Position numbers and translations under genes: made by a program. Shown piece by piece: positions 6,269-44,581 of a DNA stretch of 64,000 bases (position 1 is its first letter; each line of letters opens with the position of its first letter). Source of the DNA: a virus; IMG/VR virus record IMGVR_UViG_3300027779_000018, positions 1 through 64,000 of that record; one strand, given 5' to 3'. The notes below the pieces were generated by a model. It saw nothing but the letters and a program-made list of their open reading frames with translations, was not told the origin of the DNA and ran no database searches.

Positions 6269-7318
6269 ATGCTGTGGTTAGAGAAAAAATACTTATCGAT
6301 GGTCGTGTCCTCACTGGACATGGCAAAATGGAAGGGTGATACCACCCTTAACCATCGCTGTCTCTATTGTGGAGACTCATCAAAAAATACCCATAAAGCA
6401 CGAGGATATCACTTTGTCAAAGATCAAAGTTTTATCTATAAGTGTCATAATTGTGGTAAATCTACTAGTACAATTCAATTTCTGAAAGACCATTTCAGTG
6501 TCATACACAAAGAATACATGAGAGAGTGGTTGATAGAAACTGGAGTGAAAACTCGTCAACCAAAAATGCCTTCTTCTAACGAATTTAAGTTCAAACCAGC
6601 CATTCCAGTAGAAGAAGAATCCCTAAATAAAAATAATATTATGTCTGTTGAAAACCTTAAGTTTCTGATGAAACCTTGTAGTGAGGTTCATGAAGCACGA
6701 GAGTATTTACAGGATAGGTTGATACCTGAAGTCCATTATAAAGACCTATGGTTCACTAAAACCCCCCAATCTTTATCGATGTTATCACCGAAATACAAGG
6801 ACAGGGTTTTGGGTAATGACCCTAGAATAATAATACCGTTTCTAGATGAAAATGAACAGTTAATTGGGTTAAGTGGTCGTGCAATTAATGACAGTCCATT
6901 ACGATATATGACCATGAAATTTCATGAAGAAGTTCCCCTTATCTACAACCTACATAAGGTAGATAAATCAAAAACTATCTATGTAACAGAAGGCCCAATA
7001 GATAGTTTATTCCTACCTAACAGTATAGCAGTCGGTGGTAGTGACTTCACAAAGATAGACGATAGTCTCAAAGAAAACGCAGTTTTAATATATGACAACG
7101 AACCACGGAATGGTGAAATCCTTAAGAAACTCAATCATGTAATTGAGTTAGGATTTTCTGTTTGTATATGGAACGATAGACGAGTGAACGACCTAAAAGA
7201 TATTAATGAAATGATATTAAACGGATTGACGAATGATGAAGTGGTTGATATAATAGATAACTGTACTTATACTGGGTTAAGTGCAAAAGCAAAATTTATG
7301 GAGTATAAGAAAGGATGA
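6269..7318 (+). CDS. gp61: DNA primase (T4 gp61-like)
   Basis: Zn finger CLYCGDS..CHNCG; TOPRIM motifs VTEGPIDSLF, YDNEPRN, KDINEM. Confidence 0.95.
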   Translation: MLWLEKKYLSMVVSSLDMAKWKGDTTLNHRCLYCGDSSKNTHKARGYHFVKDQSFIYKCHNCGKSTSTIQFLKDHFSVIHKEYMREWLIETGVKTRQPKMPSSNEFKFKPAIPVEEESLNKNNIMSVENLKFLMKPCSEVHEAREYLQDRLIPEVHYKDLWFTKTPQSLSMLSPKYKDRVLGNDPRIIIPFLDENEQLIGLSGRAINDSPLRYMTMKFHEEVPLIYNLHKVDKSKTIYVTEGPIDSLFLPNSIAVGGSDFTKIDDSLKENAVLIYDNEPRNGEILKKLNHVIELGFSVCIWNDRRVNDLKDINEMILNGLTNDEVVDIIDNCTYTGLSAKAKFMEYKKG

Positions 7319-9615
7319 GTCCAATGATGTTAGTTATAAAGTCAGATGGTTCTAAGGTCGGGATTGATCTAGATAAGATTCATAAGATGGTTCATAAAGC
7401 ATGTAAGAGGGTAGCAGGTGTATCCGAATCCCTAGTAGAAATGAACAGTGGTTTACAATTCTATGATGGAATAACCACTATAGACATTCAGAAGATTTTA
7501 GTTAAATCTGCATCAGACCTCATCAGTTTAGAAAACCCAAATTACCAATATGTGGCAGCCAGACTGCTGTTATTTGGAATGCAAAAACAAGTGTTTAACA
7601 CTAAGTGGAAGGACACAACCATCTATCCACCCCTTTACGACATGATTGAAAGGAACATAGGTCAAGGTGTTTATGACCCATCTATAATTACTGTCTACAC
7701 GAAGGAAGAGATAGAGAAGTGTGATACCTACATCAAACATAGTCGTGACTTAACATTTACCTATGCAGGGTTACAACAGATTGTAGACAAGTACCTAGTA
7801 CAAGATAGAAGTAATGGTCAGGTGTTTGAGACACCTCAGTTCATGTACATGTTAATTGCAATGACTCTATTTCAAAATTATGACGAAGACAGGAGATTAG
7901 ATTATGTCAAAAGATATTACGATGCAATATCCCAGTTTAAAATCAACATTCCAACACCCATTATGGCAGGGGTGCGTACACCCTTACGGCAGTTCGCATC
8001 ATGTGTACTCGTTGATTCAGATGATTCCCTCGATTCAATCTTTACGAGTGACATGGCAATCGGAAGATATGTTGCCCAAAGAGCTGGTATTGGAATTAAC
8101 GCAGGAAGAATTAGAGGACTTGGGTCAAAGATACGAGGTGGAGAAGTACAGCACACAGGTGTAATACCTTTCCTAAAGAAATTCGAGGCAACCGTAAGAA
8201 GTTGTACTCAAAATGGAGTTAGAGGTGGAAGTGCAACAGTGCATTTTCCTATCTGGCATCAAGAGATTGAGGACATACTTGTTCTCAAGAATAATAAAGG
8301 AACTGAAGATAATAGAGTCAGAAAATTAGATTACTCTATACAGATATCTAAACTGTTTTACGAGAGGTTCCTAACGAATGGGGAGATAACTTTGTTTTCT
8401 CCACATACTGTACCTAATCTTTATGAGGCATTTGGAACGGATGAGTTTGATGAATTGTATGAAAGATACGAAAGAGCAACATCTATACCAAAGACCAAAG
8501 TTAGTGCAAGAGAATTGTTTACTGATCTATTAAAAGAAAGAGCTGAGACAGGCAGAATCTATATCATGAACATAGACCATTGCAATTCTCATAGTAGTTT
8601 TCTTGACAAGATTTCGATGTCAAATCTTTGTCAGGAGATTACACTACCAACAAAACCTTTAACACATATTGATGGAGAGGGGGAAATTGCATTATGTATA
8701 TTAAGTGCAATCAATATTGGTATTATGAAACAGGACGAGCTACCCAACCTATGTGATCTAGCAGTACGAGGACTTGAGGAATTAATTGATTTCCAAGAAT
8801 ACCCTGTAGAAGCTGCTAAGAGATCAACTCTTGCAAGAAGATCACTAGGTATTGGGTACATCGGTCTTGCACATTTCCTTGCAAAAAACAAGGTCAAGTA
8901 TGATGACCCTGAAGCACACAGATTAGTCCATGAACTTACGGAGTCATTCCAGTATCATTTACTATCTGCATCAAATCAGATTGCATCAGAGAAGGGCCCA
9001 TGTGATGGGTATGAATCAACTAAGTATTCAATAGGAATCCTTCCTATAGACACATACAAGAAGGAAGTGGATGAGATTACTCCACATGTATTAAAGGAAG
9101 ATTGGGATAAATTACGAACTCGTATAAAGGTTCATGGGTTACGACACTCTACCCTCACTGCACAAATGCCCTCTGAGAGCTCCTCAGTGGTCTCTAATGC
9201 CACTAATGGAGTAGAACCACCAAGAGATTACCTGAGTGTCAAGAAGAGTAAAAAGGGAACATTGAAACAAGTGGTTCCACAATATTCAATATACAAGAAT
9301 TTTTACACTTTATTATGGGACATGAAAGACAACGATGGGTACATAAAAACGATTGCAGTTATGCAGAAGTTCTTTGACCAAGCAATCAGTGGAAACTGGT
9401 CGTATAATCCTGAGAACTACCCAAACAATGAAGTACCAGTATCAGTCCTTGCAAAGGATATGTTAACTACTTATAAATATGGATGGAAAACATCTTATTA
9501 CCAAAACACTATGGATGGTAAGACAGAAGATGTAGTAAAAGATGCAGAGCCAGTGCAATTGCAGCTTGACCCTTTTACGGACAATGAGAGTGATTGTGAT
9601 GCCTGTGCGATATAA
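7315..9615 (+). CDS. nrdA: Class Ia ribonucleotide reductase alpha subunit
   Basis: N-terminal ATP cone, PTPIMAG, SCVL, SNLCQEI, C-terminal CDACAI. Confidence 0.97.
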   Translation: MSPMMLVIKSDGSKVGIDLDKIHKMVHKACKRVAGVSESLVEMNSGLQFYDGITTIDIQKILVKSASDLISLENPNYQYVAARLLLFGMQKQVFNTKWKDTTIYPPLYDMIERNIGQGVYDPSIITVYTKEEIEKCDTYIKHSRDLTFTYAGLQQIVDKYLVQDRSNGQVFETPQFMYMLIAMTLFQNYDEDRRLDYVKRYYDAISQFKINIPTPIMAGVRTPLRQFASCVLVDSDDSLDSIFTSDMAIGRYVAQRAGIGINAGRIRGLGSKIRGGEVQHTGVIPFLKKFEATVRSCTQNGVRGGSATVHFPIWHQEIEDILVLKNNKGTEDNRVRKLDYSIQISKLFYERFLTNGEITLFSPHTVPNLYEAFGTDEFDELYERYERATSIPKTKVSARELFTDLLKERAETGRIYIMNIDHCNSHSSFLDKISMSNLCQEITLPTKPLTHIDGEGEIALCILSAINIGIMKQDELPNLCDLAVRGLEELIDFQEYPVEAAKRSTLARRSLGIGYIGLAHFLAKNKVKYDDPEAHRLVHELTESFQYHLLSASNQIASEKGPCDGYESTKYSIGILPIDTYKKEVDEITPHVLKEDWDKLRTRIKVHGLRHSTLTAQMPSESSSVVSNATNGVEPPRDYLSVKKSKKGTLKQVVPQYSIYKNFYTLLWDMKDNDGYIKTIAVMQKFFDQAISGNWSYNPENYPNNEVPVSVLAKDMLTTYKYGWKTSYYQNTMDGKTEDVVKDAEPVQLQLDPFTDNESDCDACAI

Positions 9616-10606
9616 TAAAAAGGAAATAAAAATACAAGTATTAGATTCAGTTGAAACAGGAACAGGCAGTAATGATGGAGAAGTAGCAGTTTCGGGTTAT
9701 ACTAATCAGGAGACCTTAGATTTTCAACAGAAGGGATACCTAATCTTAAGAAATTTCATCCCCAAAGACATTATTGATATGACCTTGGATGCATGGAAGA
9801 GTATTGAGAATAAACCTGAATGGAACGATACCTTCTTTGCAAGAGAAGAGGACATAATCAATGATTCCCCTAAATCATCCTTGCGTAAATCTCAAGGATG
9901 TTATTCATTTCCGCCAGCAGTTTCATTACACAGATGGTTGAAGGATAATTTGCACAGCGTCCTCGATATGCAATTAGTGGAAACTTATGCATACACAAGA
10001 AAATATGACAGGGGTGCATACCTCAAAGCACACTCAGATAGACCATCATGTGAAGTGAGTGCAACGATATGTTTGAATTATAAAACAGATGATAATTCCC
10101 CTTGGAAGATATGGGTACAGAAAGATCAAAACTATGTTGACCTAGGAAAAGATCAACAGGCCTTGTTTGAAAGATCACAAGGTATGTCACATCGTGACAG
10201 AATTGGAACACCTATCTCACTGGAAGTGGGTGATGTGTTACTATATCAAGGCCCGAATGCAATCCACTGGAGAGATGAATTCTTAGGTGACTTCTCATAT
10301 CATATGTTCTTGCATTTTATTAACCATGGTGGATCAATCAACCGATTCGCACCGTTCCATAAGAGGGACATACATCAATCATCGGATGGTAGACCCCATA
10401 GTGTATTTGCATATGATGGGAGAAAGAGTAGGTACGACCACGAACAATCAAAAGAGTTTCAGGATGCAATGGAAATTTGGAATGACTGGGCCAAGGGAGA
10501 ACTAAAGGATTTTGAAGACTTTAAACCATCGGATTATATAAATCATTACGACAATGTAGTAGAAGTAGAAGAAACGGAAAATGATAAAAAAAGAAGAAGA
10601 AAATGA
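9599..10606 (+). CDS. 2OG-Fe(II) oxygenase family protein
   Basis: LKAHSDRPSCEVSAT (HxD) and GDVLLYQG...HWR (distal His); start uncertain. Confidence 0.75.
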   Translation: MPVRYNKKEIKIQVLDSVETGTGSNDGEVAVSGYTNQETLDFQQKGYLILRNFIPKDIIDMTLDAWKSIENKPEWNDTFFAREEDIINDSPKSSLRKSQGCYSFPPAVSLHRWLKDNLHSVLDMQLVETYAYTRKYDRGAYLKAHSDRPSCEVSATICLNYKTDDNSPWKIWVQKDQNYVDLGKDQQALFERSQGMSHRDRIGTPISLEVGDVLLYQGPNAIHWRDEFLGDFSYHMFLHFINHGGSINRFAPFHKRDIHQSSDGRPHSVFAYDGRKSRYDHEQSKEFQDAMEIWNDWAKGELKDFEDFKPSDYINHYDNVVEVEETENDKKRRRK

Positions 10607-20606: not shown

Positions 20607-21518
20607 ATGGCGACTAACATTATAATGCATCAGAAGTCTAACATGACTGCTGAAACAATCAACACCTCATTTGTACGACTCAAGAAACTTAGAGTTCAAA
20701 TGATTCAAGCAGGACACAATGAAGTATCGTTTTTCTGCCTCAAAGATAGAGCGTGTCAAACTGGTGGACTACTGGATTGGATTACCCCAATTCTTTACGA
20801 TGCTGACCCTCTCATTACTGATGAGTCCTATTACCAATTAACGGTCTTAGCCGATCACCCCCAACTTGCAATAGACCATTGTAAGAATATCTTGTGGAAC
20901 CCTGCATTAATTCCCCTAGACCTATGTCAAACTGCTATCCTCGCCAACCTACCATCAAAAGGGGACATCAAGAATATACCCGATAGCGTAGAGTTAGACG
21001 CTGCCACCCTAGTCACCATTAAAGAGAATGCACTACCCTTCATAGAGATGCCGATGAAATGGTGGGACTTTGAAGATGATGATGACATAGACACTGAATT
21101 CAAGGGACAATGGTATTTTGCCTTTGTCAGTGAAGAACTCAAGGACATAAAAACCACCTTCATGGCTGATATCACAAACACTATAGACACCTATAGTGCA
21201 ATAGGTGGTGTTCAAGGATTTATAGAATCCCAATACAAGGGAGTTGTCCTACCCACCAAATGTGGTCAGTTCACCCCTTACTATATCAACAACGAAGAGA
21301 AGAATTTAGAACTTAACGAACAATGGGAAACGAAGATCAGACATTATTTCCCTACTGAGTGGTATCCACCCGATCAGTCAGAAATGGATGCACCCCTGTT
21401 TTCCTATGACCACGAATGGAGAGACGTGTCAAAACAAGTACGATTCTTGTTCATGGATGACAACAACGGTGAACACGATCAGAAATCTGATTTGTATGCA
21501 CGACTATGGTTCCTATAA
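20607..21518 (+). CDS. Hypothetical protein
   Basis: 303-aa ORF, AAGGA RBS; no motif recognised. Confidence 0.7.
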   Translation: MATNIIMHQKSNMTAETINTSFVRLKKLRVQMIQAGHNEVSFFCLKDRACQTGGLLDWITPILYDADPLITDESYYQLTVLADHPQLAIDHCKNILWNPALIPLDLCQTAILANLPSKGDIKNIPDSVELDAATLVTIKENALPFIEMPMKWWDFEDDDDIDTEFKGQWYFAFVSEELKDIKTTFMADITNTIDTYSAIGGVQGFIESQYKGVVLPTKCGQFTPYYINNEEKNLELNEQWETKIRHYFPTEWYPPDQSEMDAPLFSYDHEWRDVSKQVRFLFMDDNNGEHDQKSDLYARLWFL

Positions 21519-22798
21519 CGCCCTTAAAGTTGCGCCTACCCTCGGGCGAAGCGCTCGTTAACGGCGTTATAGGAAATAAGGAACATCTAATTTTCGATCA
21601 ATTCCTCACGGACGAGGAATGCAATCACATTGCTACCATACTCAAACGAGACGAACATAAGATTTTGCGTATACCGAATCACGAGGATACTGGTTACACA
21701 GGAACCACTTCTAAATATTCGGTATACAATCTGTTAAATCATGGTGATATTCGCCCCCTGAAACTACCCGATAGACTATTCAACTTATCCCTATTTTCAC
21801 ATTGCACTGAACTATGGGTGCAATGTTGGGGTAACGTATTGCATCAAGGACAAGAATTGTCCACTCACATGCATAGCTCCGTAGAACAACCATTGAATTT
21901 GTGTGCCACGTCCATATACCTAGAAGGCCCCGAACCTTCTTATACACATTGGGAAGACACTGGCCAGACCCAAAACATTCAGGGACAACTCAACGTGGTC
22001 GGACAACACCACGAACACTCAGTCAAACCCAATATACACACACAACCACGGATTTCTATGGCATTGGATATTCATTGGGAGTATAGTCCTCTCATGATCG
22101 AAAACAACACCAAACGATTCATGCACATTCAGAGAAAGGAGAAGGTACTGTACGAATCAGACTATGAGGGTATGCCCATAATCGTTAAAGAAACTAACGA
22201 CACCACCAAATTATACTTCGGTCACCAGTCGAAAATAGTCCAAACGATAATCTCAAAGAAGAATCCTCTCACACTATGGCACACCTATAGTAAGCAGTTA
22301 TGTGAAGTGACCAAACGAGTGAAAGACCCAAAAAATGCATTGGTACTTGGATTGGGGGGTGGAATCATACCCTCATGGTTACTTGCAAACACTAAGTGTA
22401 AGGTTGATGCGGTTGAGATCATACCCGAACTCGAACACATAGCACAAAAATACTTCCACATGCCCAAGAGTATCAATGTCATTATAGACGATGCATTTAA
22501 ATTCGTGCAGGACACTTCAAACACCTATGATATTATCGTTGTCGATCTATGGGAACCCACAGGGGACTTTATGGAGAAGTTTGATGATGCATTCTATAAT
22601 GGATTAAAACAGATTCTCAGAAACCCTAACGGCTGTATTGCAATCAACACCTTATTTCGTATGGATAGGGAACGCCATGACGAGTACCTACTACGACTTA
22701 AAAAGGAATTCACATCCGTAACAGAATGCCTCAACCCTTACCCCAAGAGCAACAATTGTGTCATCTACTGCAGTAATAACACCATAAATAACACATAA
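21506..22798 (+). CDS. Fusion: 2OG-Fe(II) oxygenase-like + spermidine synthase-like SAM-binding domain
   Basis: N-part WGNV..THMH..HEHSV..PRISMA; C-part LVLGLGGG, DAVEI, IIDDA, YDIIVVD. Confidence 0.78.
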   Translation: MVPITPLKLRLPSGEALVNGVIGNKEHLIFDQFLTDEECNHIATILKRDEHKILRIPNHEDTGYTGTTSKYSVYNLLNHGDIRPLKLPDRLFNLSLFSHCTELWVQCWGNVLHQGQELSTHMHSSVEQPLNLCATSIYLEGPEPSYTHWEDTGQTQNIQGQLNVVGQHHEHSVKPNIHTQPRISMALDIHWEYSPLMIENNTKRFMHIQRKEKVLYESDYEGMPIIVKETNDTTKLYFGHQSKIVQTIISKKNPLTLWHTYSKQLCEVTKRVKDPKNALVLGLGGGIIPSWLLANTKCKVDAVEIIPELEHIAQKYFHMPKSINVIIDDAFKFVQDTSNTYDIIVVDLWEPTGDFMEKFDDAFYNGLKQILRNPNGCIAINTLFRMDRERHDEYLLRLKKEFTSVTECLNPYPKSNNCVIYCSNNTINNT

Positions 22799-22813
22799 AG
22801 GAAACAATTAAAC

Positions 22814-23182
22814 ATGAAATTTGACAGTAACAACCCCAAAGTATTGGTACACTACGAAACGAGCAACCCCTTAGCCTCTGAGATGTTCGAATACCTAACC
22901 GACAAAGTCCCCTTCATGGATGAGGTAGGAGATTCAAACACTTACGGAAGTTGGGTACACCACACGGACGAGCATGGACTCTTTGACATCTACTTCCACC
23001 TGATAGACAATCCTACCCTCACAGAACCATGGTTAGAATTAGGAGAGGCCATCAGCCACAAAACCTATTTCGTAGACACCACAGGAACGCTGGAGAATAT
23101 ACCCACGAATGCGTCCGTCATCGTAGAAACCACACCCGCGGAGCTATGGGAACGAGTCAAACGAGAGTATCTTGAACGGTGA
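22814..23182 (+). CDS. Hypothetical protein
   Basis: AAGGA RBS after CATAAATA. Confidence 0.6.
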   Translation: MKFDSNNPKVLVHYETSNPLASEMFEYLTDKVPFMDEVGDSNTYGSWVHHTDEHGLFDIYFHLIDNPTLTEPWLELGEAISHKTYFVDTTGTLENIPTNASVIVETTPAELWERVKREYLER

Positions 23183-23541
23183 CCTACAACAATAACTACA
23201 CCGAACCCAACATAGACAACGGAATAACGGTCAGTAGAAAGAATTCAGAGGTCATCGGTAATACCTTTACCCCTGATTGGAGTAAAAACACTCACCTTTG
23301 CTATGGGGGTGGAGATCACTTCCATGAGGGAACCACAAGAACAAGACGTAGTACCGTAGAACACTTCAACATCCCCCTAAACTATAAGGAACTCCAACAC
23401 CTTACCACAGGGGATCATTCCACACTTCACCACCAACTCAAAGAACGTCTAGGAATAGACCTACACACGGTGTACGATATCGATAGAGTATGGATAGCTC
23501 CTCATAACACATGGGAACCAATAGGAAAGGGGTCTTATTAA
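23179..23541 (+). CDS. Hypothetical protein
   Basis: GTGA overlap, 120 aa. Confidence 0.5.
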   Translation: MTYNNNYTEPNIDNGITVSRKNSEVIGNTFTPDWSKNTHLCYGGGDHFHEGTTRTRRSTVEHFNIPLNYKELQHLTTGDHSTLHHQLKERLGIDLHTVYDIDRVWIAPHNTWEPIGKGSY

Positions 23542-23759
23542 CCCAACTGAGAGAAGTATCGTCTAATCATATAGACCCGACAATAGGCAACCACGGTCAT
23601 GATTGCCGTCACCGTAGTACCAATGTAAAATGCACTGTCCCATTCGAGGATATTCATGAAGAGAAACAGCAGAGAAAGATTCAGAGGGTAGTTAATTAAC
23701 AACCCAGTACCTACTGCTGTCATTGTTTCTTTGTGTATTTTACGAGACTTCTTAGACAT
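23538..23759 (-). CDS. Small two-TM membrane protein
   Basis: ETMTAVGTGLLINYPL...YCRVYMIRRYF; ATG starts 7 nt after TATACT. Confidence 0.65.
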   Translation of the reverse strand: MSKKSRKIHKETMTAVGTGLLINYPLNLSLLFLFMNILEWDSAFYIGTTVTAIMTVVAYCRVYMIRRYFSQLG

Positions 23760-24031
23760 ACCTATAGTATAACACACTGAGAGGCCTATGTATAGGGGGT
23801 TTTAATATAATTCTGAGAGTCTTATGGTGAGAGTGATTAAAAGTGGGGAGAAGTGTGTCAAAGTGGGGGAATAATAATGGAATGTAAGGGGTGATACTGA
23901 GAGTATTACTTTTTGGGTATCGGTGATGTTGTTAAGGGGTACAAACACGAGATTTAGTCGGGAGTCAAGTCGGAGCGTTGCCTAAATGGTGCCGCTGAGA
24001 CCCTTATCCCATAGGTATCTCAGAGCGCCTG

Positions 24032-24211
24032 CTAGAGGACAGTGCATTTGGTGATGTGAATGCACTTAGTGTCATCTATGTGCAGGGCATTCAGCTCCTC
24101 TTGAGAGATAAACGTAGCGTCTTCCGTCCATTCTTTGTCCGTCCAGTTCTCTAGTGTCTCTCCTAGACGGTGGGTTTGTGCAATCCAGTTGTTATATCCT
24201 TCTAGTGACAT
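24032..24211 (-). CDS. Small early hypothetical protein (59 aa)
   Basis: Read by hand: MSLEGYNNWIAQTHRLGETLENW...; GAGG upstream. Confidence 0.5.
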   Translation of the reverse strand: MSLEGYNNWIAQTHRLGETLENWTDKEWTEDATFISQEELNALHIDDTKCIHITKCTVL

Positions 24212-24369
24212 GATACATAGGCCTCGTCTGAACTCATGGGGGATCGATTGAGTGCAATTTGTATGTTGACCTTCTCTGCGTACTCATGAGCGGCCATCTT
24301 TGTCTTGAATATCTTTGCACATAGGGGTCGGTGAGTGTGTAAGCAGCTGATTCGGTAGTAGAAAAACAT
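24202..24369 (-). CDS. Small early hypothetical protein (55 aa)
   Basis: Read by hand: MFFYYRISCLHTHRPLC...; TAATG overlap with the upstream ORF. Confidence 0.5.
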   Translation of the reverse strand: MFFYYRISCLHTHRPLCAKIFKTKMAAHEYAEKVNIQIALNRSPMSSDEAYVSCH

Positions 24370-24554
24370 TATACACTCTCCATTTTCAGTTTTGTGATTG
24401 CACTTCGTAGTTTTGCTTCCTTACGAGGACTAGCCGGCAGTGATATCCCTCTATTTTGTCCTATTAGAGGGATGCGATCATCCTCTATAGCCCATATCTC
24501 TGAAACCATCTCAGTCCGTTCTTCTTTTGTCATCTCATTCCACTCTTTCATCAT
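24369..24554 (-). CDS. Small early hypothetical protein
   Basis: Directly downstream of the minus-strand sigma70 promoter. Confidence 0.6.
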   Translation of the reverse strand: MMKEWNEMTKEERTEMVSEIWAIEDDRIPLIGQNRGISLPASPRKEAKLRSAITKLKMESV

Positions 24555-24581
24555 CTTTCTCTCATTATTTAATATACAAGT

Positions 24582-24611
24582 ATTATATCAGAAATGTGGG
24601 GTCATTGTCAA
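24582..24611 (-). promoter_or_regulatory. Sigma70-type early promoter (leftward)
   Basis: Reverse complement TTGACAATGACCCCACATTTCTGATATAAT. Confidence 0.85.
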
Positions 24612-24749
24612 CACTTTTCTGCACCTATATTCGTTTTCTTTGCACACTTATCTGCACCACGCAGCGCTTTGAGTTTCCCACGGAGAATGTATGCTTCATT
24701 GTCGGGTCTTTGTTCCTGAAACCCTTACCACCACTGGGTTTCAGAGCGG

Positions 24750-24779
24750 TTGACAATGGGTCACACTTTATGTTATACT
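24750..24779 (+). promoter_or_regulatory. Sigma70-type early promoter (rightward)
   Basis: TTGACAATGGGTCACACTTTATGTTATACT. Confidence 0.85.
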
Positions 24780-24916
24780 ATGTATATAATGGAGATTAAG
24801 CGAATGATATAGAGTGACGGCGGTGCGAGGCAATGTCGATACCTCACTGTATAGACTGCAAGAGTCTGAATTTTTGGAAACACTACTAGTGTCTCTGAGA
24901 TTTCTTTGAGCTAAAG

Positions 24917-24963
24917 TTATCCACAGAGTTATCCACAAAAAGTTATCCACAGAGTTATCCACA
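24917..24963 (+). promoter_or_regulatory. Four tandem consensus DnaA boxes (TTATCCACA)
   Basis: Exact 9-mers at 24917, 24929, 24943 and 24955. Confidence 0.85.
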
Positions 24964-25094
24964 GGCGCCCCTCGGTTGGCGTATCACCTGTGGCCACAGC
25001 TTAAACTGAGTCGGCCTGGTATGAAAATCGAATGAGCGCTCCCTTGATACACCTAGTGTACAGGGTACGTCAAACGGTGTCGCAGAAATAACAC

Positions 25095-25124
25095 TTGACA
25101 ATGCCTCCGATAAACTGTTATACT
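25095..25124 (+). promoter_or_regulatory. Sigma70-type early promoter
   Basis: TTGACA-18bp-TATACT. Confidence 0.82.
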
Positions 25125-25130
25125 ATAGGT

Positions 25131-25364
25131 ATGATAAAGAATCAAGAAAATAAATTGATCGCGACCCACCTTGCCACAGGTCAGTCTGTAGAGATAGACC
25201 TCACTGACAAAGAGATGGTGTATGCAACCTGTAAGGACGTGTGCATCAACGAGTGCTGGGACTTCTTAGACAGCCTAGTGGACAACAGGACAGGGATTAA
25301 GATCATCGATGAATTGCAGATAGACTTCATCGTGGTTAACGGAATTAAAAAGGTTTTCCACTAG
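25131..25364 (+). CDS. Early hypothetical protein (probably leaderless)
   Basis: ATG starts 7 nt after the -10 box; no SD. Confidence 0.6.
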   Translation: MIKNQENKLIATHLATGQSVEIDLTDKEMVYATCKDVCINECWDFLDSLVDNRTGIKIIDELQIDFIVVNGIKKVFH

Positions 25365-25541
25365 ACACACAGACCTCACCATGGTATAATAACTGTATGG
25401 TTTAAAGAAATGAATCAAAGGCAATACTAGAGTGCCTATGAAAGTCTAGTAGGGTGACGGCCGAACGTCATTAAGTTCTGATAGAGCAGAGGGGTTATGA
25501 GAGTGACCCCCCTTTACTGTTAGATAAGGATATGATATAAT

Positions 25542-25739
25542 ATGAAGACAAACGTAATTGGAGCAGAACGGTGGACTACTGTAGATGTATACAGTATACC
25601 AAAGGACTCTACGCGTATGGCAGGAGCATCGATGCTAGAGCGTCGCACTAAGACCCCTGTAAGCCTCTCTGAGGGACTTGCAGTGTGTCAAGAGTACGAG
25701 GGTCAGGGTCATGTCGTAGAGCTCCGTAGAGTGACGTAG
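25542..25739 (+). CDS. Early hypothetical protein
   Basis: AAGGA upstream; 65 aa. Confidence 0.55.
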   Translation: MKTNVIGAERWTTVDVYSIPKDSTRMAGASMLERRTKTPVSLSEGLAVCQEYEGQGHVVELRRVT

Positions 25740-25880
25740 AGAGAGAGCGTCTTAAAACAGTGCTGTGGGACTCCTAGACTCTTTTAGAAGCGACCTAGAC
25801 CCCCACCCTAATTGTATTCAAAGATTATTCTAAGTGATATCAAAAAATTTCTCAGGTAAAAATTATGACTAAAAACAAAA

Positions 25881-26036
25881 ATGAATAATTCAGAGCAATG
25901 GAAAAAGAACTCCGATGAATGGGTCAAGACCATGGAAGCATCAAGAATTAAAAAAGAAGAATACAACAAGTATCGTATCACCACGAAGAACCCATTATCC
26001 TACAGAGATTGGTTGGCCATGGGAGAAATATCATGA
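25881..26036 (+). CDS. Small hypothetical protein (51 aa)
   Basis: Read by hand: MNNSEQWKKNSDEWVKTME...; ATGA overlap with the next gene. Confidence 0.5.
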   Translation: MNNSEQWKKNSDEWVKTMEASRIKKEEYNKYRITTKNPLSYRDWLAMGEIS

Positions 26037-26308
26037 GTCACAGTGCAATGTTTAAAGCAATGAATCGAGAGAAGTCTGCATGGATTCTTAAATGGGTCGC
26101 AAGTGTATGTCTAGTGATAGGAATGAGTGTTCGTGCAAGTGGTATACCCGAACTCGCTATATTTGATTTAACATTTTCCTTCGTGGGTATATGTGGTTGG
26201 TTGACGGTGAGTATTATATGGAATGACCGTGCATTGATATTATTAAATGCAACTGGGTTTCTGATTTTATTGACTGGTTTAATTAAATACTTTTTCGTGG
26301 GAGTCTAA
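26033..26308 (+). CDS. Small three-TM membrane protein (DUF6552-like)
   Basis: WILKWVAS...GWLTVSIIWNDRALILLN. Confidence 0.7.
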   Translation: MSHSAMFKAMNREKSAWILKWVASVCLVIGMSVRASGIPELAIFDLTFSFVGICGWLTVSIIWNDRALILLNATGFLILLTGLIKYFFVGV

Positions 26309-26316
26309 ATAATATC

Positions 26317-26595
26317 ATGATAGATTTTTTATTAAGTATACTGACCTTTCCTTTTTGGTTAGTGTCTACCTTTTTCATTTACGCTTTTGGAATTGTGTTT
26401 TACTATGGCATCTATGTGTTGTGTCGTGTGTACATCTACGAGGCACATTGGGATACCATTAAAGACAAGGTCTTTACAAGAACAGAAATGAAAACCCATA
26501 GGGAGCCCTCTCGTGTCTACACCAAGGCAGAAGATTATAAGACACCAAAGGACTACTCACCGAAACACGATGATATAGAGGATTATATAAATTAA
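26317..26595 (+). CDS. Membrane hypothetical protein
   Basis: Hydrophobic N-terminus. Confidence 0.6.
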   Translation: MIDFLLSILTFPFWLVSTFFIYAFGIVFYYGIYVLCRVYIYEAHWDTIKDKVFTRTEMKTHREPSRVYTKAEDYKTPKDYSPKHDDIEDYIN

Positions 26596-26596
26596 T

Positions 26597-26800
26597 ATGC
26601 AAGACGCAAATATTTTAATACACATAGGATACGTTGTCGCACTCGTGTGGTTTGTATTCCGTAACGGCCGTAAGAGTGGTCGTAAAGAACTTTGTGAGGA
26701 ATTCATGGAGAAGGGACTCATTACAGAAGCTAAACTCATGAAACACTACCCACCACCCCCTGAAATTAAAGACGATTTGAAAAACCCCCCGAAAGAATAG
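26597..26800 (+). CDS. Small membrane hypothetical protein
   Basis: N-terminal TM helix; GAGG RBS. Confidence 0.6.
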   Translation: MQDANILIHIGYVVALVWFVFRNGRKSGRKELCEEFMEKGLITEAKLMKHYPPPPEIKDDLKNPPKE

Positions 26801-26809
26801 GACAGTATA

Positions 26810-28120
26810 ATGAATGAAACAAAGAAAGACAGTGAGAAAGTCATTTCGGATGAGACTCAGCAGAACATAAGAATCCTAGGGATTAATATTTCACATGACG
26901 CGTCTATTGCAGTCATCGATAACGGTGTCGTAACCAGTGTCTACGAAGAGGAACGCTGTCGCAGGACGAAGTACTGGGCTCCCCATGGGGATAAGGAAAC
27001 ACTCTACCAGTGTATCGAGCAGAAGAACCTAGAAGAGATTGATGAGGTGGTCTTCACTTCATTTGATCGCAGGCAGTTTAATGTTGTGGTCTCACCCACG
27101 ATCAGTCTCGACAGAATGAAGTCTCGTGAGTTTATTAGAAAATTAGAAACACAACAATTGTCTCGAGCTCGGTTAGAAGAGTTGGTAGAAGAATACCCCG
27201 ATGATTTCTCTATTGAGAAAATCTATGAGAACGATGAAGACCAAAGAATCATGGATGACATCGCAACCAATCAGTTAGGATTATCTTCAGAGGAATACCT
27301 CTACAATGTAGATCACCATGTCCACCATGCCTATTGTGGATTCGTTCAGTCAGAGATGGAGAATGCATTGGTCATTGTCATGGACGGTGGTGGCTGTCAG
27401 AAATATTACGACACACATCCTGCTTACCAAGAAATTGAATCCATTTATTATGCTACCAAAGGTGGGATGGAACCCTGTTGGAGTCGATTGTCGAACAGTC
27501 GTTTCATCGGGGACTTCGATGAGTTCTTCCCCAACGAATGTCACGCAGCTGGTCTCTGTTACTTAGATGAAGAGGAACATAGGGATGGGGTTGATCTTTG
27601 TTTTACTTCTCGTCCTAGCGCTGGTATGAACTTCAGTAACATGTCTCTAGCACTAGGGACGGATGACCAAGGTCGAGCAGCTGGAAAAGTGATGGGTATG
27701 GCATCCTACGGAAAACCTTCTCAGAATATATTCAACAAGTATAATGTCAGTCAACAATTGGAACTCGATTCCTACGACCATACGGTGGAGATCATCAAAC
27801 GTGCTATTGACTATGCACCTGATTGTAGGAACATTGTTCTCAGTGGTGGGTACTCTTTAAACTGTACCAACAACTACAAGTACTTAGAGGCCTTCCCTGA
27901 TTATCAAATCTTCGTTGACCCTATTCCCCATGATGGTGGAACGGCAGTCGGAGCTGCATTGCAGATGTGGGAAAATATTAATAGTAATAATGTTTCTAAT
28001 AATGTACAAAGTACATTTAATGAAACAAATGAAGAGGATAACGACACTTTACCCGACTGGCCAGAGATAAAAGATGATGAACCACAGATCACCCCTTTAG
28101 AGTGGAGTGCAGATAAATGA
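26810..28120 (+). CDS. Carbamoyltransferase (NodU/CmcH) N-terminal Kae1-like domain
   Basis: ILGINISHDASIA, EEER..R.K, HHVHHA, VMDGGG, AGKVMGMASYG, SGGYSLNC, HDGGTAVGAA. Confidence 0.9.
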   Translation: MNETKKDSEKVISDETQQNIRILGINISHDASIAVIDNGVVTSVYEEERCRRTKYWAPHGDKETLYQCIEQKNLEEIDEVVFTSFDRRQFNVVVSPTISLDRMKSREFIRKLETQQLSRARLEELVEEYPDDFSIEKIYENDEDQRIMDDIATNQLGLSSEEYLYNVDHHVHHAYCGFVQSEMENALVIVMDGGGCQKYYDTHPAYQEIESIYYATKGGMEPCWSRLSNSRFIGDFDEFFPNECHAAGLCYLDEEEHRDGVDLCFTSRPSAGMNFSNMSLALGTDDQGRAAGKVMGMASYGKPSQNIFNKYNVSQQLELDSYDHTVEIIKRAIDYAPDCRNIVLSGGYSLNCTNNYKYLEAFPDYQIFVDPIPHDGGTAVGAALQMWENINSNNVSNNVQSTFNETNEEDNDTLPDWPEIKDDEPQITPLEWSADK

Positions 28121-28737
28121 TTACAAGAATAGTAAGAGACTTAGATGACATCGTTGATTTAATTATTGATGAGAAACAAATCGTTGCGATCTTTCAAGGT
28201 GAAGGTGAGTGGGGCCCTAGAGCGCTAGGTAACCGTTCTATTCTATTTGACCCTAGACATAAGGAAGCTAAACAAATCGTCAACAGTGTGAAGAAGAGAG
28301 AGTCCTACAGACCTTTTGCAGGGAGTGTCATGGCAGAACATGCTCATGAGTATTTTCACATGTTGCAATTAAAAGAATCCCCATGGATGTCCTTTGCGAT
28401 TCAAGCAAAAGATATTGCCTACGAAAAAGTACCGACACTGGTACACGCAGATGGGACTTGCAGAATTCAAACGGTCACAAGAGAACAGAATAAAAACTAT
28501 TACGAATTAATTGAAGCCTTCTATGAGAAGACTGGTGTCCCGATGATTTTTAATACTTCGTTTAACTTGGGTGGTGAAGCACTGGTTGAAACAATTCAAG
28601 ATGCTATTGACACTTGCAACCGTTCTGAAATTAATTACCTCTATATTCCTGAAGACCAAGACTTTGATATCCCCTTTGAACAATTGAAATATAAATCATT
28701 GGAAGAGATAAACAAAAATAAAGGGGACATGGAATAG
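28117..28737 (+). CDS. Carbamoyltransferase C-terminal YrdC-like domain
   Basis: EWGPRALGNRSIL, VKKRESYRPFA, HADGTCRIQTV, NTSFNLGGE. Confidence 0.92.
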   Translation: MITRIVRDLDDIVDLIIDEKQIVAIFQGEGEWGPRALGNRSILFDPRHKEAKQIVNSVKKRESYRPFAGSVMAEHAHEYFHMLQLKESPWMSFAIQAKDIAYEKVPTLVHADGTCRIQTVTREQNKNYYELIEAFYEKTGVPMIFNTSFNLGGEALVETIQDAIDTCNRSEINYLYIPEDQDFDIPFEQLKYKSLEEINKNKGDME

Positions 28738-42337: not shown

Positions 42338-42931
42338 ATGACGAGTCGTGATGGTTACGATGCATACACATTATACCTTGGTATAAAATTGCACTTCCAT
42401 TCTGAGAGTTACGATTTCGTTAAGTATAACGGAAAGGTTAAATCAGACATCAACTCATTTTTAAAAAGAAAGGACAAATACCATTTCGGTAAGTTGTTCA
42501 AAACTTATAAACAAGACCTACAAGATTTTTATATAGCAAACCTATCCTTTAAAGATTATTGGGCAGGTGACTTGTTGGATAAAGAATGTGACAAACGGTA
42601 CAAGGAATGGAAGAACCGTAATCAGAAACTTGGTTACATGTTTGAAACCGAAGTGTCCGATCTGTTGGGGAAGTTTAAAATTGAGACACAACTTAAGGTT
42701 GTCAATGGTCAACATCCTCGTCTACTCAAAGCATACATGAGTAAACAGATAAGTCTAGAAACTATTTGTATCATGGATGAGATAATAGGTTTCACTAAAG
42801 ATTGGGACACACTTATATCTGAACAGATAGTGTATCCTGATTTACGAATAAAGATAAACAAGTACAAGTCATTCCTTACATATGACCAATCCAAATACAA
42901 GACTAAACTTATAGAATTATGTACGAAGTAA
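42338..42931 (+). CDS. gp59: Helicase loader (gp59)
   Basis: YL.IKLHF...YDF.KYNGK, F.KRKDKY.F.KL, ISLET. Confidence 0.9.
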   Translation: MTSRDGYDAYTLYLGIKLHFHSESYDFVKYNGKVKSDINSFLKRKDKYHFGKLFKTYKQDLQDFYIANLSFKDYWAGDLLDKECDKRYKEWKNRNQKLGYMFETEVSDLLGKFKIETQLKVVNGQHPRLLKAYMSKQISLETICIMDEIIGFTKDWDTLISEQIVYPDLRIKINKYKSFLTYDQSKYKTKLIELCTK

Positions 42932-43681: not shown

Positions 43682-44581
43682 ATGTCAAGTAGTTTAGATA
43701 AACTAAGAGCAGCAATGGAAACTGCTTCCCCATCTGATGGTGGAAAACAAAAATCCTTTAATGACGAAAGAGTGTGGAAACCTGAACTGGATAAAACTGG
43801 TAATGGATATGCAGTAGTTCGTTTTTTACCAACCCCCGATGGAGAAGAGATGCCTTGGGTATCTTATTTCGATCATGGCTTTCAAGGGCCAGGTGGATGG
43901 TATATTGAGAAGTCTTTAACGACTCTTAATAAAAAAGACCCTGTAAGTGAATATAACACTTCGTTATGGAACACTGGAATTGAAGCAAACAAAGAGATTG
44001 CAAGGAAACAAAAACGCAGACTGCATTATGTTTCTAATGTCTATGTTGTTTCTGATCCTAAGAATCCTGATAACGAAGGTAAAGTGTTCATGTATAGGTT
44101 CGGAAAGAAAATCTTCGAACAGTTAAAAGAAGCAATCTCACCAGCATTTGAAGATGAGAAAGCAATCAATCCTTTTGACTTAAGAGATGAAGGTGCAAAC
44201 TTCAAAATCAAAATTAGAAAAGTTGATGGTTATTGGAACTACGACAAATCTGAGTTTGATGCAACAGCACCTTTGTTTGATGATGAGGCAAAACTAAACT
44301 CAGTGTTTAGTCAAGTGCATTCATTGTCAGGTGTAATTGCCCCAAGTGAATTCAAGTCTTATGAAGAACTCAAAGAGAAGCTTCAACGAGTACTTGGAAC
44401 TGTTGGGTCAACATCTACTGCTGAATCAGTTGCAGAAGACATGGACGAAGTTCCGTGGGCTAATGTGAATACTGAGACAGTAGCAGTTGAACCAGTAATT
44501 GAAAGTGTATCCCCTTCGGCTGGAACTAGTTCCGATGAAGTAGATGCAATGGATTACTTTAAGAAGTTAGCTCAAGACTAA
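43682..44581 (+). CDS. gp32: Single-stranded DNA-binding protein (gp32)
   Basis: DKTGNGYAVVRFLP, HGFQGPGGWYIE.SLTT, GANFK.KI, NYDKSEF; acidic tail. Confidence 0.96.
   Translation: MSSSLDKLRAAMETASPSDGGKQKSFNDERVWKPELDKTGNGYAVVRFLPTPDGEEMPWVSYFDHGFQGPGGWYIEKSLTTLNKKDPVSEYNTSLWNTGIEANKEIARKQKRRLHYVSNVYVVSDPKNPDNEGKVFMYRFGKKIFEQLKEAISPAFEDEKAINPFDLRDEGANFKIKIRKVDGYWNYDKSEFDATAPLFDDEAKLNSVFSQVHSLSGVIAPSEFKSYEELKEKLQRVLGTVGSTSTAESVAEDMDEVPWANVNTETVAVEPVIESVSPSAGTSSDEVDAMDYFKKLAQD

Follow-up and report, generated by a model that had tools for sequence, protein, structure and literature searches.

What does a cluster of four perfect DnaA boxes do in the early region of a phage that encodes T4-type replication proteins of its own? 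The cluster was studied in a window of 64,000 nucleotides, which is the whole stretch of DNA analysed here and belongs to a virus record of 81,951 bases, classed as linear and 45% complete. PHROG matches placed a T4-type primase at 6269-7318, the helicase loader gp59 at 42338-42931 and gp32 at 43682-44581, in agreement with the original prediction that the phage has its own gp61/gp59/gp32 replisome genes. Ribonucleotide reductase subunits and baseplate genes were matched as well. The baseplate wedge protein was nearest to Methylophilales phage Melnitz and to Pelagibacter phages Mosig and HTVC008M (~40% identity), and no cultured phage was close at the DNA level by BLAST. When 1.1 kb around the array was used as the BLAST query, the sole phage DNA matched was that of Berlinvirus.

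The locus itself was recovered from other samples. At least 86% of the sampled words of its 1.3-kb sequence were contained in 14 DNA runs labelled as seawater, marine or, in one case, freshwater metagenome. Four of these runs could come from the source sample itself; the other ten belong to nine studies. The comparison at the contig level covered three DNA runs and one RNA run (X15).

The array and its early region

An exact-match scan of the window found TTATCCACA four times, all on the + strand (Table 1), and the sequence over the array reads aaAGTTATCCACAgAGTTATCCACAaaaAGTTATCCACAgAGTTATCCACAgg. The start-to-start spacing was 12, 14 and 12 bp and AG stood directly 5' of every box, so the predicted anatomy of four co-oriented, AG-preceded boxes was confirmed in full. 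All four units matched the DnaA-box consensus TTWTNCACA in its best form, TTATCCACA. A genome-wide count had been proposed earlier as a check. Dinucleotide shuffles gave a mean of 0.95 copies per window, and four copies were reached in 1 of 100 shuffles, a figure that describes the total count and takes no account of the clustering within 47 bp. Over all 81,951 bases of the record there was no fifth copy on the + strand and none on the reverse strand. Relaxed boxes (TTWTNCACA) were not in excess in the window, with 9 observed against 10.6 expected and the five outside the array dispersed. Therefore, the signal is a single cluster and not a genome-wide bias.

A two-box module (AGTTATCCACAGAGTTATCCACA), duplicated once in tandem, makes up the array. 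Tandem Repeats Finder reported a 26-bp unit in 2.0 copies with 100% identity, and a second repeat search found 25 identical bp. Doubling of the two-box unit explains the 12/14/12 spacing, and the duplication is probably recent because the copies do not differ at any position. No inverted repeat involving the array was found by the repeat search.

Table 1. Features of the array and the surrounding early region (positions in the window)
Feature	Position	Strand	Basis
Divergent predicted early promoter, 12/12, for small genes 24554..24032 (-)	24582..24611	-	consensus
9-bp perfect stem-loop (CTGAAACCC/GGGTTTCAG), just 5' of the 24750 promoter	24716..24744	+	repeat search
Predicted early promoter, TTGACA-18-TATACT, TG extended, ~130 nt upstream of array	24750..24779	+	consensus
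Variable cassette carrying the array	24796..25188	.	variant contig in X14, L133/L134
47-nt leader element, 95.7% identical in L134 (2276-2322)	24805..24851	+	alignment
Predicted hairpin just 5' of array	24868..24904	+	fold
26-bp two-box unit, two perfect copies	24913..24963	+	repeat searches
DnaA box 1, TTATCCACA, perfect R1/R4 type	24917..24925	+	sequence
DnaA box 2, 3 bp (GAG) past box 1	24929..24937	+	sequence
DnaA box 3, 5 bp (AAAAG) past box 2	24943..24951	+	sequence
DnaA box 4, 3 bp (GAG) past box 3	24955..24963	+	sequence
G+C-rich non-coding DNA 3' of array	24964..25094	+	composition
Next predicted early promoter; -10 box, 6 nt, then ATG 25131 of a 77-aa ORF	25095..25124	+	consensus

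The DNA around the array is free of genes, and a predicted sigma70-type promoter stands on each side of it. The description of the array as non-coding DNA held: upstream of the ATG at 25131, back to the predicted start near 24786, no + strand ORF exceeds 31 aa, and the two minus-strand ORFs across the array (64 and 48 aa) begin with GTG/TTG and lack a strong promoter-like site upstream. The further claim that the array sits between early promoters was borne out to the extent that sites are predicted on both sides, as consensus predictions. The three flanking sites match the consensus at 11-12 of 12 positions and are among nine near-identical sites in the window (TTGACAATG...TG.TATACT). This family is most simply read as the early promoters of the phage, a consensus prediction rather than a set of mapped starts.

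No terminator was predicted between the 24750 promoter and the array, so transcripts from 24750 should cross it, and the early region that holds the array is probably transcribed though not translated. The hairpin just 5' of the array may be the terminator of a small RNA that ends before the boxes, although the terminator scan did not call it and its T-run falls within the stem. In the RNA library X15, a contig spans the array over 24813-25010 with 0 differences, with possible DNA carry-over and the strand not shown. Cover in this run was also present over 25182-25600, with none over 24344-24783 and 25048-25179. The left end of the array contig is a strain joint that is also present in DNA contigs, and Logan contigs give neither strand nor transcript ends. 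The RNA-library cover is thus only a hint of transcription. Runs X16-X20 held small shares and were given no weight.

No sign of a structured RNA was found around the array. The folds of 24786-24915 (z -1.27) and 24960-25095 (z -1.55) were not better than those of shuffles. In Rfam searches, the window had no match at the gathering threshold, and 24560-25560 had none at E up to 1. A family scan of seven small neighbouring ORFs returned DUF7220 only.

DnaA-box identity and recurrence in other phages

The original prediction had named TTATCCACA as the high-affinity R1/R4 box of bacterial DnaA. The comparison with E. coli agreed with this: the array 12-mer AGTTATCCACAG is identical to oriC box R4 with its flanks (NC_000913.3), and the 11-mer GTTATCCACAG is identical to R1. 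Boxes of the TTATCCACA type are described as the best DnaA binders in the consulted part of PMC5835720.

The two-box 21-mer, consisting of the boxes and the GAG linker, was found at no fewer than 120 bacterial loci from many phyla. Among the 120 bacterial matches listed, dnaA was present within the 8-kb locus in 26, at most 1 kb from the pair in 25 of those, and dnaN was present in 21. These dnaA-linked bacterial modules carry the same 21-mer, with co-oriented boxes at 11-12 bp.

The same 21-mer occurred in at least 115 IMG/VR contigs, compared with 1 for the reversed-letter control. Neither dnaA nor dnaN was found among the 115 viral loci listed, where the neighbours are phage genes such as terminases, RusA, VapE-type primases and integrases. 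The pair lay outside ORFs of at least 100 aa in 74 of the 115. Extra boxes beside the pair in the listed viral loci stood only at 11 bp (37) or 12 bp (28), and of 24 mismatches in these extra boxes 13 fell where TTWTNCACA is degenerate, at positions 3 and 5. Flank statistics of the IMG/VR boxes were left aside, since the search pattern biases them. The G+C content of the fetched loci around the pair ranged from 27 to 73%. If the repeat were recognised by a protein peculiar to one phage, a single spelling across such different genomes would not be expected.

Judged by its sequence, the array is well supported as a cis element for host DnaA, and it very probably binds this protein. The core of the original prediction, a DnaA-binding cis element, therefore stands on the R4 12-mer, the dnaA-linked 21-mer and the recurrence in phages, while its mechanism was only narrowed.

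It is highly unlikely that the repeats have a function apart from DnaA, either as operators or iterons for a phage protein or as a repeated RNA motif (4 x AGUUAUCCACAG) through which an early non-coding RNA would bind an RNA or a protein of the host. Direct repeats are present, the array is probably within a transcript, and the small ORFs nearby gave no known family apart from DUF7220; the record is 45% complete, so a binder could be encoded elsewhere. However, the 21-mer is common to dnaA-linked bacterial loci and unrelated phages over the G+C range given above, and no protein of the window matched any of the 115 listed array-bearing viral loci. The record, at its 45% completeness, held no Bac_DnaA or Bac_DnaA_C domain. 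The fold and Rfam results also speak against an RNA motif, as does the random orientation of the boxes relative to genes in the other listed phage loci. In the 115 listed viral loci, the boxes pointed in the same direction as the upstream gene in 44 and in the opposite direction in 54; for the downstream gene the counts were 47 and 41. Since there is no orientation bias, an orientation-dependent roadblock is not favoured as a general role either.

Cultured phages also carry the module. The 56-nt array was compared by BLAST with 50,697 phage records, and 360 matched at E up to 1, T5-likes included. The carriers named were T5-likes, T7-like Berlinviruses, the Lactococcus 949 group, Pseudomonas phiK7A1, Microbacterium and Streptomyces phages and the present marine T4-like phage. 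Two Berlinviruses have their boxes in the interval from the terminase gene to the early genes: P483 has five perfect boxes and degenerate units, and A7 has four perfect boxes and degenerate units at nt 22-140 of its record. Lactococcus phage 949 has one pair in a 1-kb divergent non-coding region, Pseudomonas phiK7A1 has two convergent pairs, Microbacterium phage Squash has a pair at nt 346-366, and Klebsiella T7-likes have the module at nt 1-74. Among the T4-like matches Vibrio VS1, VS2 and QD01, the one inspected, QD01, has a single perfect box inside a CDS and no array.

The Berlinvirus arrays (P483, nasanit and A7) resemble the present one in consisting of GTTATCCACA(G/A) units, 11-12 bp apart, and in lying in the non-coding DNA of virulent phages that have a replisome of their own. 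They differ in having more units, several of them degenerate, in lying near the genome ends, and in belonging to a family unrelated to the phage of the window.

DnaA boxes are usually discussed for chromosomes, plasmids and temperate replicons, and for virulent phages only the T5 hypothesis was found in the literature searched, which is where the census of viral contigs, control and cultured-phage records matters. In the freely accessible literature that this search covered, no paper treats tandem DnaA boxes as something that virulent phages have in general. The published phage cases found were the T5 preprint and an Ori-Finder figure legend for one Pseudomonas phage.

Conservation and cassette exchange

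The array was identical, with 0 differences, in contigs of two other runs, X5 (24809-25193) and X9 (24599-25600). It was also identical in L132, which matches the window at 99.3% over 1,149 aligned bases. Within the phage's own population the four-box form does not vary, being unchanged in samples of 2017 and 2024 and in L132. The flanks are as invariant as the boxes in the compared contigs; therefore, selective constraint on the boxes cannot be shown from them.

The nearest distinct syntenic relatives, L133, L134 and L135, contain no DnaA box, not even a relaxed one. Their flanking genes are 70-84% identical to the window in nucleotides, and L134 is syntenic from 22327 to 27786. The array is thus not conserved at the syntenic locus. 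The original prediction had named absence from close relatives, as expected after recent slippage, as evidence against a functional element. The results go partly against the prediction, as absence and a perfect duplication were both found; on the other side, the two-box module is not a chance occurrence and the four-box form is identical across independent samples.

At the slot of the array, L133 and L134 have ~448 nt of other DNA. The slot of L134 consists of three tandem early promoters with ~270 nt of gene-free DNA after each, and the leader is shared with L134 only over the 47 nt listed in Table 1. A candidate homology between 24964-25094 and the second non-coding unit of L134 was rejected, as its local alignment score of 18 was equalled in 59 of 300 shuffles. 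In X14, a variant contig joins 24795 to 25189 with ~454 unlike letters between them; this run left 24872-25003 without cover, and only the joining contig was used. Other strain joints also lie at promoters. The variant contig and the promoter joints show that the array lies in a cassette swapped between co-occurring lineages.

Beyond the syntenic relatives, no tandem TTWTCCACA pair was found in any of nine cultured T4-type genomes (Melnitz, Mosig, HTVC008M, P-HM1, P-SSM2, S-SRM01, S-SKS1, S-8S53 and T4). A 430-aa fusion protein used as a query gave three IMG/VR relatives (54-58% aa identity), and the array was absent from all three; L124 has one perfect and three relaxed boxes, dispersed. A carbamoyltransferase query gave no relatives in IMG/VR. 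The exact four-box 12/14/12 pattern was found in no other IMG/VR contig, and T4-type gp6 was found in none of the ten largest array-bearing IMG/VR records. The array is therefore a lineage-specific accessory, dispensable for phages of this kind, given its absence from the relatives and from the nine cultured T4-likes. This standing as a lineage-level accessory limits the weight of the array for the present phage.

These observations bear on the reading of the array as a neutral passenger, that is, a two-box fragment recombined into a shuffling-prone early region and doubled by slippage, which may bind DnaA with no gain for the phage. The perfect 26-bp duplication, the absence from L133-L135 and the cultured T4-likes, the replacement of the cassette at promoter joints in co-occurring variants and the equal invariance of the flanks all fit such a history. 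We nevertheless consider it unlikely. In viral contigs the module outnumbers its reversed control about 100-fold, most of the listed loci place it outside ORFs of at least 100 aa, and it recurs in many unrelated cultured virulent phages. The enrichment, the non-coding placement and the recurrence argue that phages keep the module for a reason. The persistence of the four-box form in the samples of both years and in L132 also stands against a passenger.

Candidate roles of the array

The locus was compared with known DnaA-dependent elements. In E. coli oriC, the R1 and R4 boxes are widely separated, point in opposite directions and frame both the low-affinity sites and the unwinding element. 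The 9-mer of R1 and R4 is the same as that of the array, whereas the array boxes are four, tandem and co-oriented and are followed by G+C-rich DNA. One property of an oriC-type origin is present, namely co-oriented boxes about one helical turn apart (12/14/12, + strand).

Other properties of such an origin were missing. No DnaA-trios were found 3' of the array: a G+C cluster (GGCGCCCC) is present, but it is followed by tcggttggcgtatcacc. Real dnaA-linked loci with the same 21-mer read box-box-gccc-CTACTACT, and gccc-CTACTACTACT follows box-box in several Firmicutes dnaA-linked loci. Origins with the order box-box-GC-cluster-CTA-trio are called basal unwinding systems. The bacterial loci (e.g. 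L157, L189, L195, L198, L214 and L218) run into trios and A+T-rich DNA, whereas the window has neither. The A+T content downstream of the array is 0.50, compared with a mean of 0.68 in the 26 dnaA-linked loci. Directly after the last box it is 0.30-0.37, and 30-bp windows 3' of the array have 30-50% A+T against a mean of 62% in the window. No A+T-rich unwinding element was found within 130 bp on either side. The G+C-richest DNA nearby is that 3' of the array, and the nearest windows with at least 80% A+T are the -10 regions of promoters.

The motif WATCARNNNNTTR, which we take to be the IHF binding motif, was absent from 24500-25400 and occurred 13 times across the window. A single GATC lies near the array. 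Because DnaA-trios, an A+T-rich element and an IHF-like site are all missing, the locus gives no support to a mechanism of the oriC, datA or DARS kind. Several options of the original prediction are affected. Its host-DnaA-assisted origin is disfavoured in the DnaA-opened form by the missing trios and the G+C-rich DNA after the array, and datA-like or DARS-like chemistry is not supported, with the IHF-type site absent from 24500-25400. From its list, this leaves as candidates a simple sink and either a roadblock or coupling to the promoter.

The datA locus and plasmid-borne boxes are further parallels, being clusters of consensus boxes outside an origin, as in the array (PMC5835720, consulted part). 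According to the same part of this source, plasmid-borne DnaA boxes raise the initiation mass in E. coli, and the strong effect of datA needs IHF and DnaA-ATP hydrolysis. A replicating phage genome would imitate such extra boxes on multicopy DNA. In the need for IHF, datA differs from the array, whose locus is without the IHF-like motif over 24500-25400.

A host-assisted early origin could also work with no DnaA-opened DNA of its own. The transcript from 24750 would form an R-loop, as at T4 oriF/oriG and in ColE1-type plasmids, and DnaA at the array would help to hold the strands apart or to bring in a helicase while phage proteins are still scarce. The locus offers a strong predicted promoter followed by ~340 nt of gene-free DNA at a point of divergent transcription. 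In the consulted parts of the sources, plasmid-type and prophage replicons use TTATCCACA boxes (PMC1950889), DnaA stimulates lambda replication via transcription (PMC8203912), and the R-loop origins of T4 offer a precedent (PMC3016281). Likeness to T4 oriE, oriF and oriG extends to even repeats of ~12 nt, dependence on an early-type promoter and transcriptional divergence (PMC3016281, consulted part). T4 oriE lies inside gene 5 according to the annotation, unlike the array, so the iteron parallel is loose. The consulted part of the T4 origin review (PMC3016281) contains 0 occurrences of "DnaA" and states that oriF and oriG need an A+T-rich unwinding element. At the present locus a promoter is predicted, but no such element follows downstream, nor are there trios. 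The phage also encodes a helicase loader, a primase and a single-stranded DNA-binding protein, and its syntenic relatives manage with no array. An early origin is thus distinctly unlikely.

T5-like phages provide the closest published phage case. Their injection-stop (iss) region contains eight DnaA boxes in pairs 3 bp apart, and a model proposed as a hypothesis holds that membrane-bound DnaA halts DNA entry (10.1101/866236, consulted part). Applied here, membrane-bound DnaA would hold incoming or replicating phage DNA. The likeness comprises a virulent phage with its own replication genes and pairs of consensus boxes 3 bp apart in untranslated DNA (10.1101/866236, consulted part), and the pair geometry is the same (boxes 1-2 and 3-4, GAG). 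The module is also often near the start of the record, as in A7, Squash and the Klebsiella T7-likes. However, half of the eight T5 boxes are degenerate and lie in inverted repeats within the terminal repeat, according to the part of the preprint consulted. The array has four perfect co-oriented boxes, no inverted repeat and a position internal to the early region. The T5 pairing in inverted repeats IRC/IRD and IRD'/IRC' is absent, and there is no reverse-strand box in the record. T4-type genomes are circularly permuted, as stated for T4 itself (PMC3016281, consulted part), so an internal site would have no fixed position at entry, and the T5 model is itself a hypothesis. A membrane tether or DNA-entry device is therefore very improbable for this phage.

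The preferred reading, with a probability of about one half, takes the array for a docking site that host DnaA would bind with high affinity and that would act as a sink, a roadblock or both. Because every DNA-melting part is missing, occupancy alone is the most likely way of working, and we put the chances that the array acts by occupancy rather than as an unwinding origin at about even. As a roadblock, the docking site would operate on the 24750 promoter, which would transcribe an untranslated stretch carrying the lineage-specific array. Bound DnaA would stand in the way of RNA polymerase arriving from 24750 and, for as long as free DnaA abounds, could reduce read-through to the next early unit. 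DnaA has reportedly been found to block transcription in earlier work.

As a sink, each copy of the phage genome would tie up at least four DnaA molecules. If at least 100 phage copies are assumed, the sink would become comparable to the ~200 DnaA monomers per origin given for E. coli in the consulted part of PMC5835720. Host initiation would then be delayed and DnaA-controlled host genes would be derepressed. Four boxes per genome are a weak sink early in infection, and it is only a tentative suggestion that the sink is the main benefit of the array.

Elements of this kind are known but poorly understood, and the present locus adds a T4-type case. More speculatively, the GAG-linked double R4-type box may be a module gained repeatedly by unrelated virulent phages, which would capture the host initiator with no phage protein. 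Here the duplicated module would trap DnaA in an amount that grows with phage copy number, would halt further rounds of host replication and would let an early transcription unit read the replication state of the host; this wider reading is doubtful. Several carriers of the module can be grown and engineered, so whether phages trap, sense or borrow the host initiator via naked DNA sites is directly testable.

Possible conserved leader element and predicted early promoters

The non-coding region around the DnaA-box array contains a 47-nt element that was 95.7% identical, by sequence comparison, to positions 2276-2322 of L134, a syntenic relative of the phage without DnaA boxes. The flanking genes shared just 70-84% identity between the two. 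The initial 12 nt of the element occurred a second time (11/12 match) at 25450-25461, downstream of the 25362 promoter. Judged from its sequence, the element may be conserved as an early non-coding RNA or as a leader element.

L134 also displayed three predicted strong promoters in tandem (2215-2842), spaced by approximately 300 bp, and the DNA downstream of the first and second contained no evident gene. This stretch would correspond to a row of putative non-coding units, each driven by its own promoter.

The window contains nine nearly identical predicted early-type promoters. In metagenome contigs, joints between strains were located at promoters of this type (24590/24599, 24795/24808, and 25367), and the early region looks like a site of promoter-mediated cassette shuffling. 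Three auxiliary genes of unusual kind were also observed in the window.

Features of the window and DnaA-box runs of two Berlinviruses
Feature	Position	Strand or context
47-nt element	24805-24851	Untranslated transcript downstream of predicted 24750 promoter
Early-type promoters, predicted	12713, 13228, 13903, 24750, 25095, 30462, 38302, 38772	+
Early-type promoter, predicted	24611	-
Stem-loop, perfect 9-bp	24716-24744	Immediately upstream of predicted early-type promoter 24750
Spermidine-synthase domain fused to 2OG-Fe(II) oxygenase match (weak, below cut-off)	21506-22798	
Carbamoyltransferase, apparently split, two overlapping ORFs	26810-28120 + 28117-28737	
Ferrochelatase-like gene	9542-10606	
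GTTATCCACA-type run, P483	L001 2440-2570	Five perfect boxes and degenerate ones
GTTATCCACA-type run, A7	L257 22-140	Four perfect boxes and degenerate ones

DnaA boxes in other phages and in bacterial dnaA loci

In the T7-like Berlinviruses P483 and A7, the DNA that separates the terminase gene from the early genes holds a series of GTTATCCACA-type units; the series apparently lies at or close to the ends of the genome. In Pseudomonas phage phiK7A1, perfect DnaA boxes were arranged as two convergent pairs approximately 40 bp apart (L129 2013-2088), inside an intergenic gap of 385 bp. The left pair was identical to the boxes of the window in spelling and in its AG/GG flanks.

In six bacterial dnaA loci (L157, L189, L195, L198, L214, and L218), the GAG-linked box pair was followed, approximately 40-50 nt in the 3' direction, by another pair of boxes together with a short G+C cluster and CTA repeats. 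By its sequence organization, this group is the signature of a DnaA unwinding module, and the GAG-linked pair is an auxiliary pair upstream of it.
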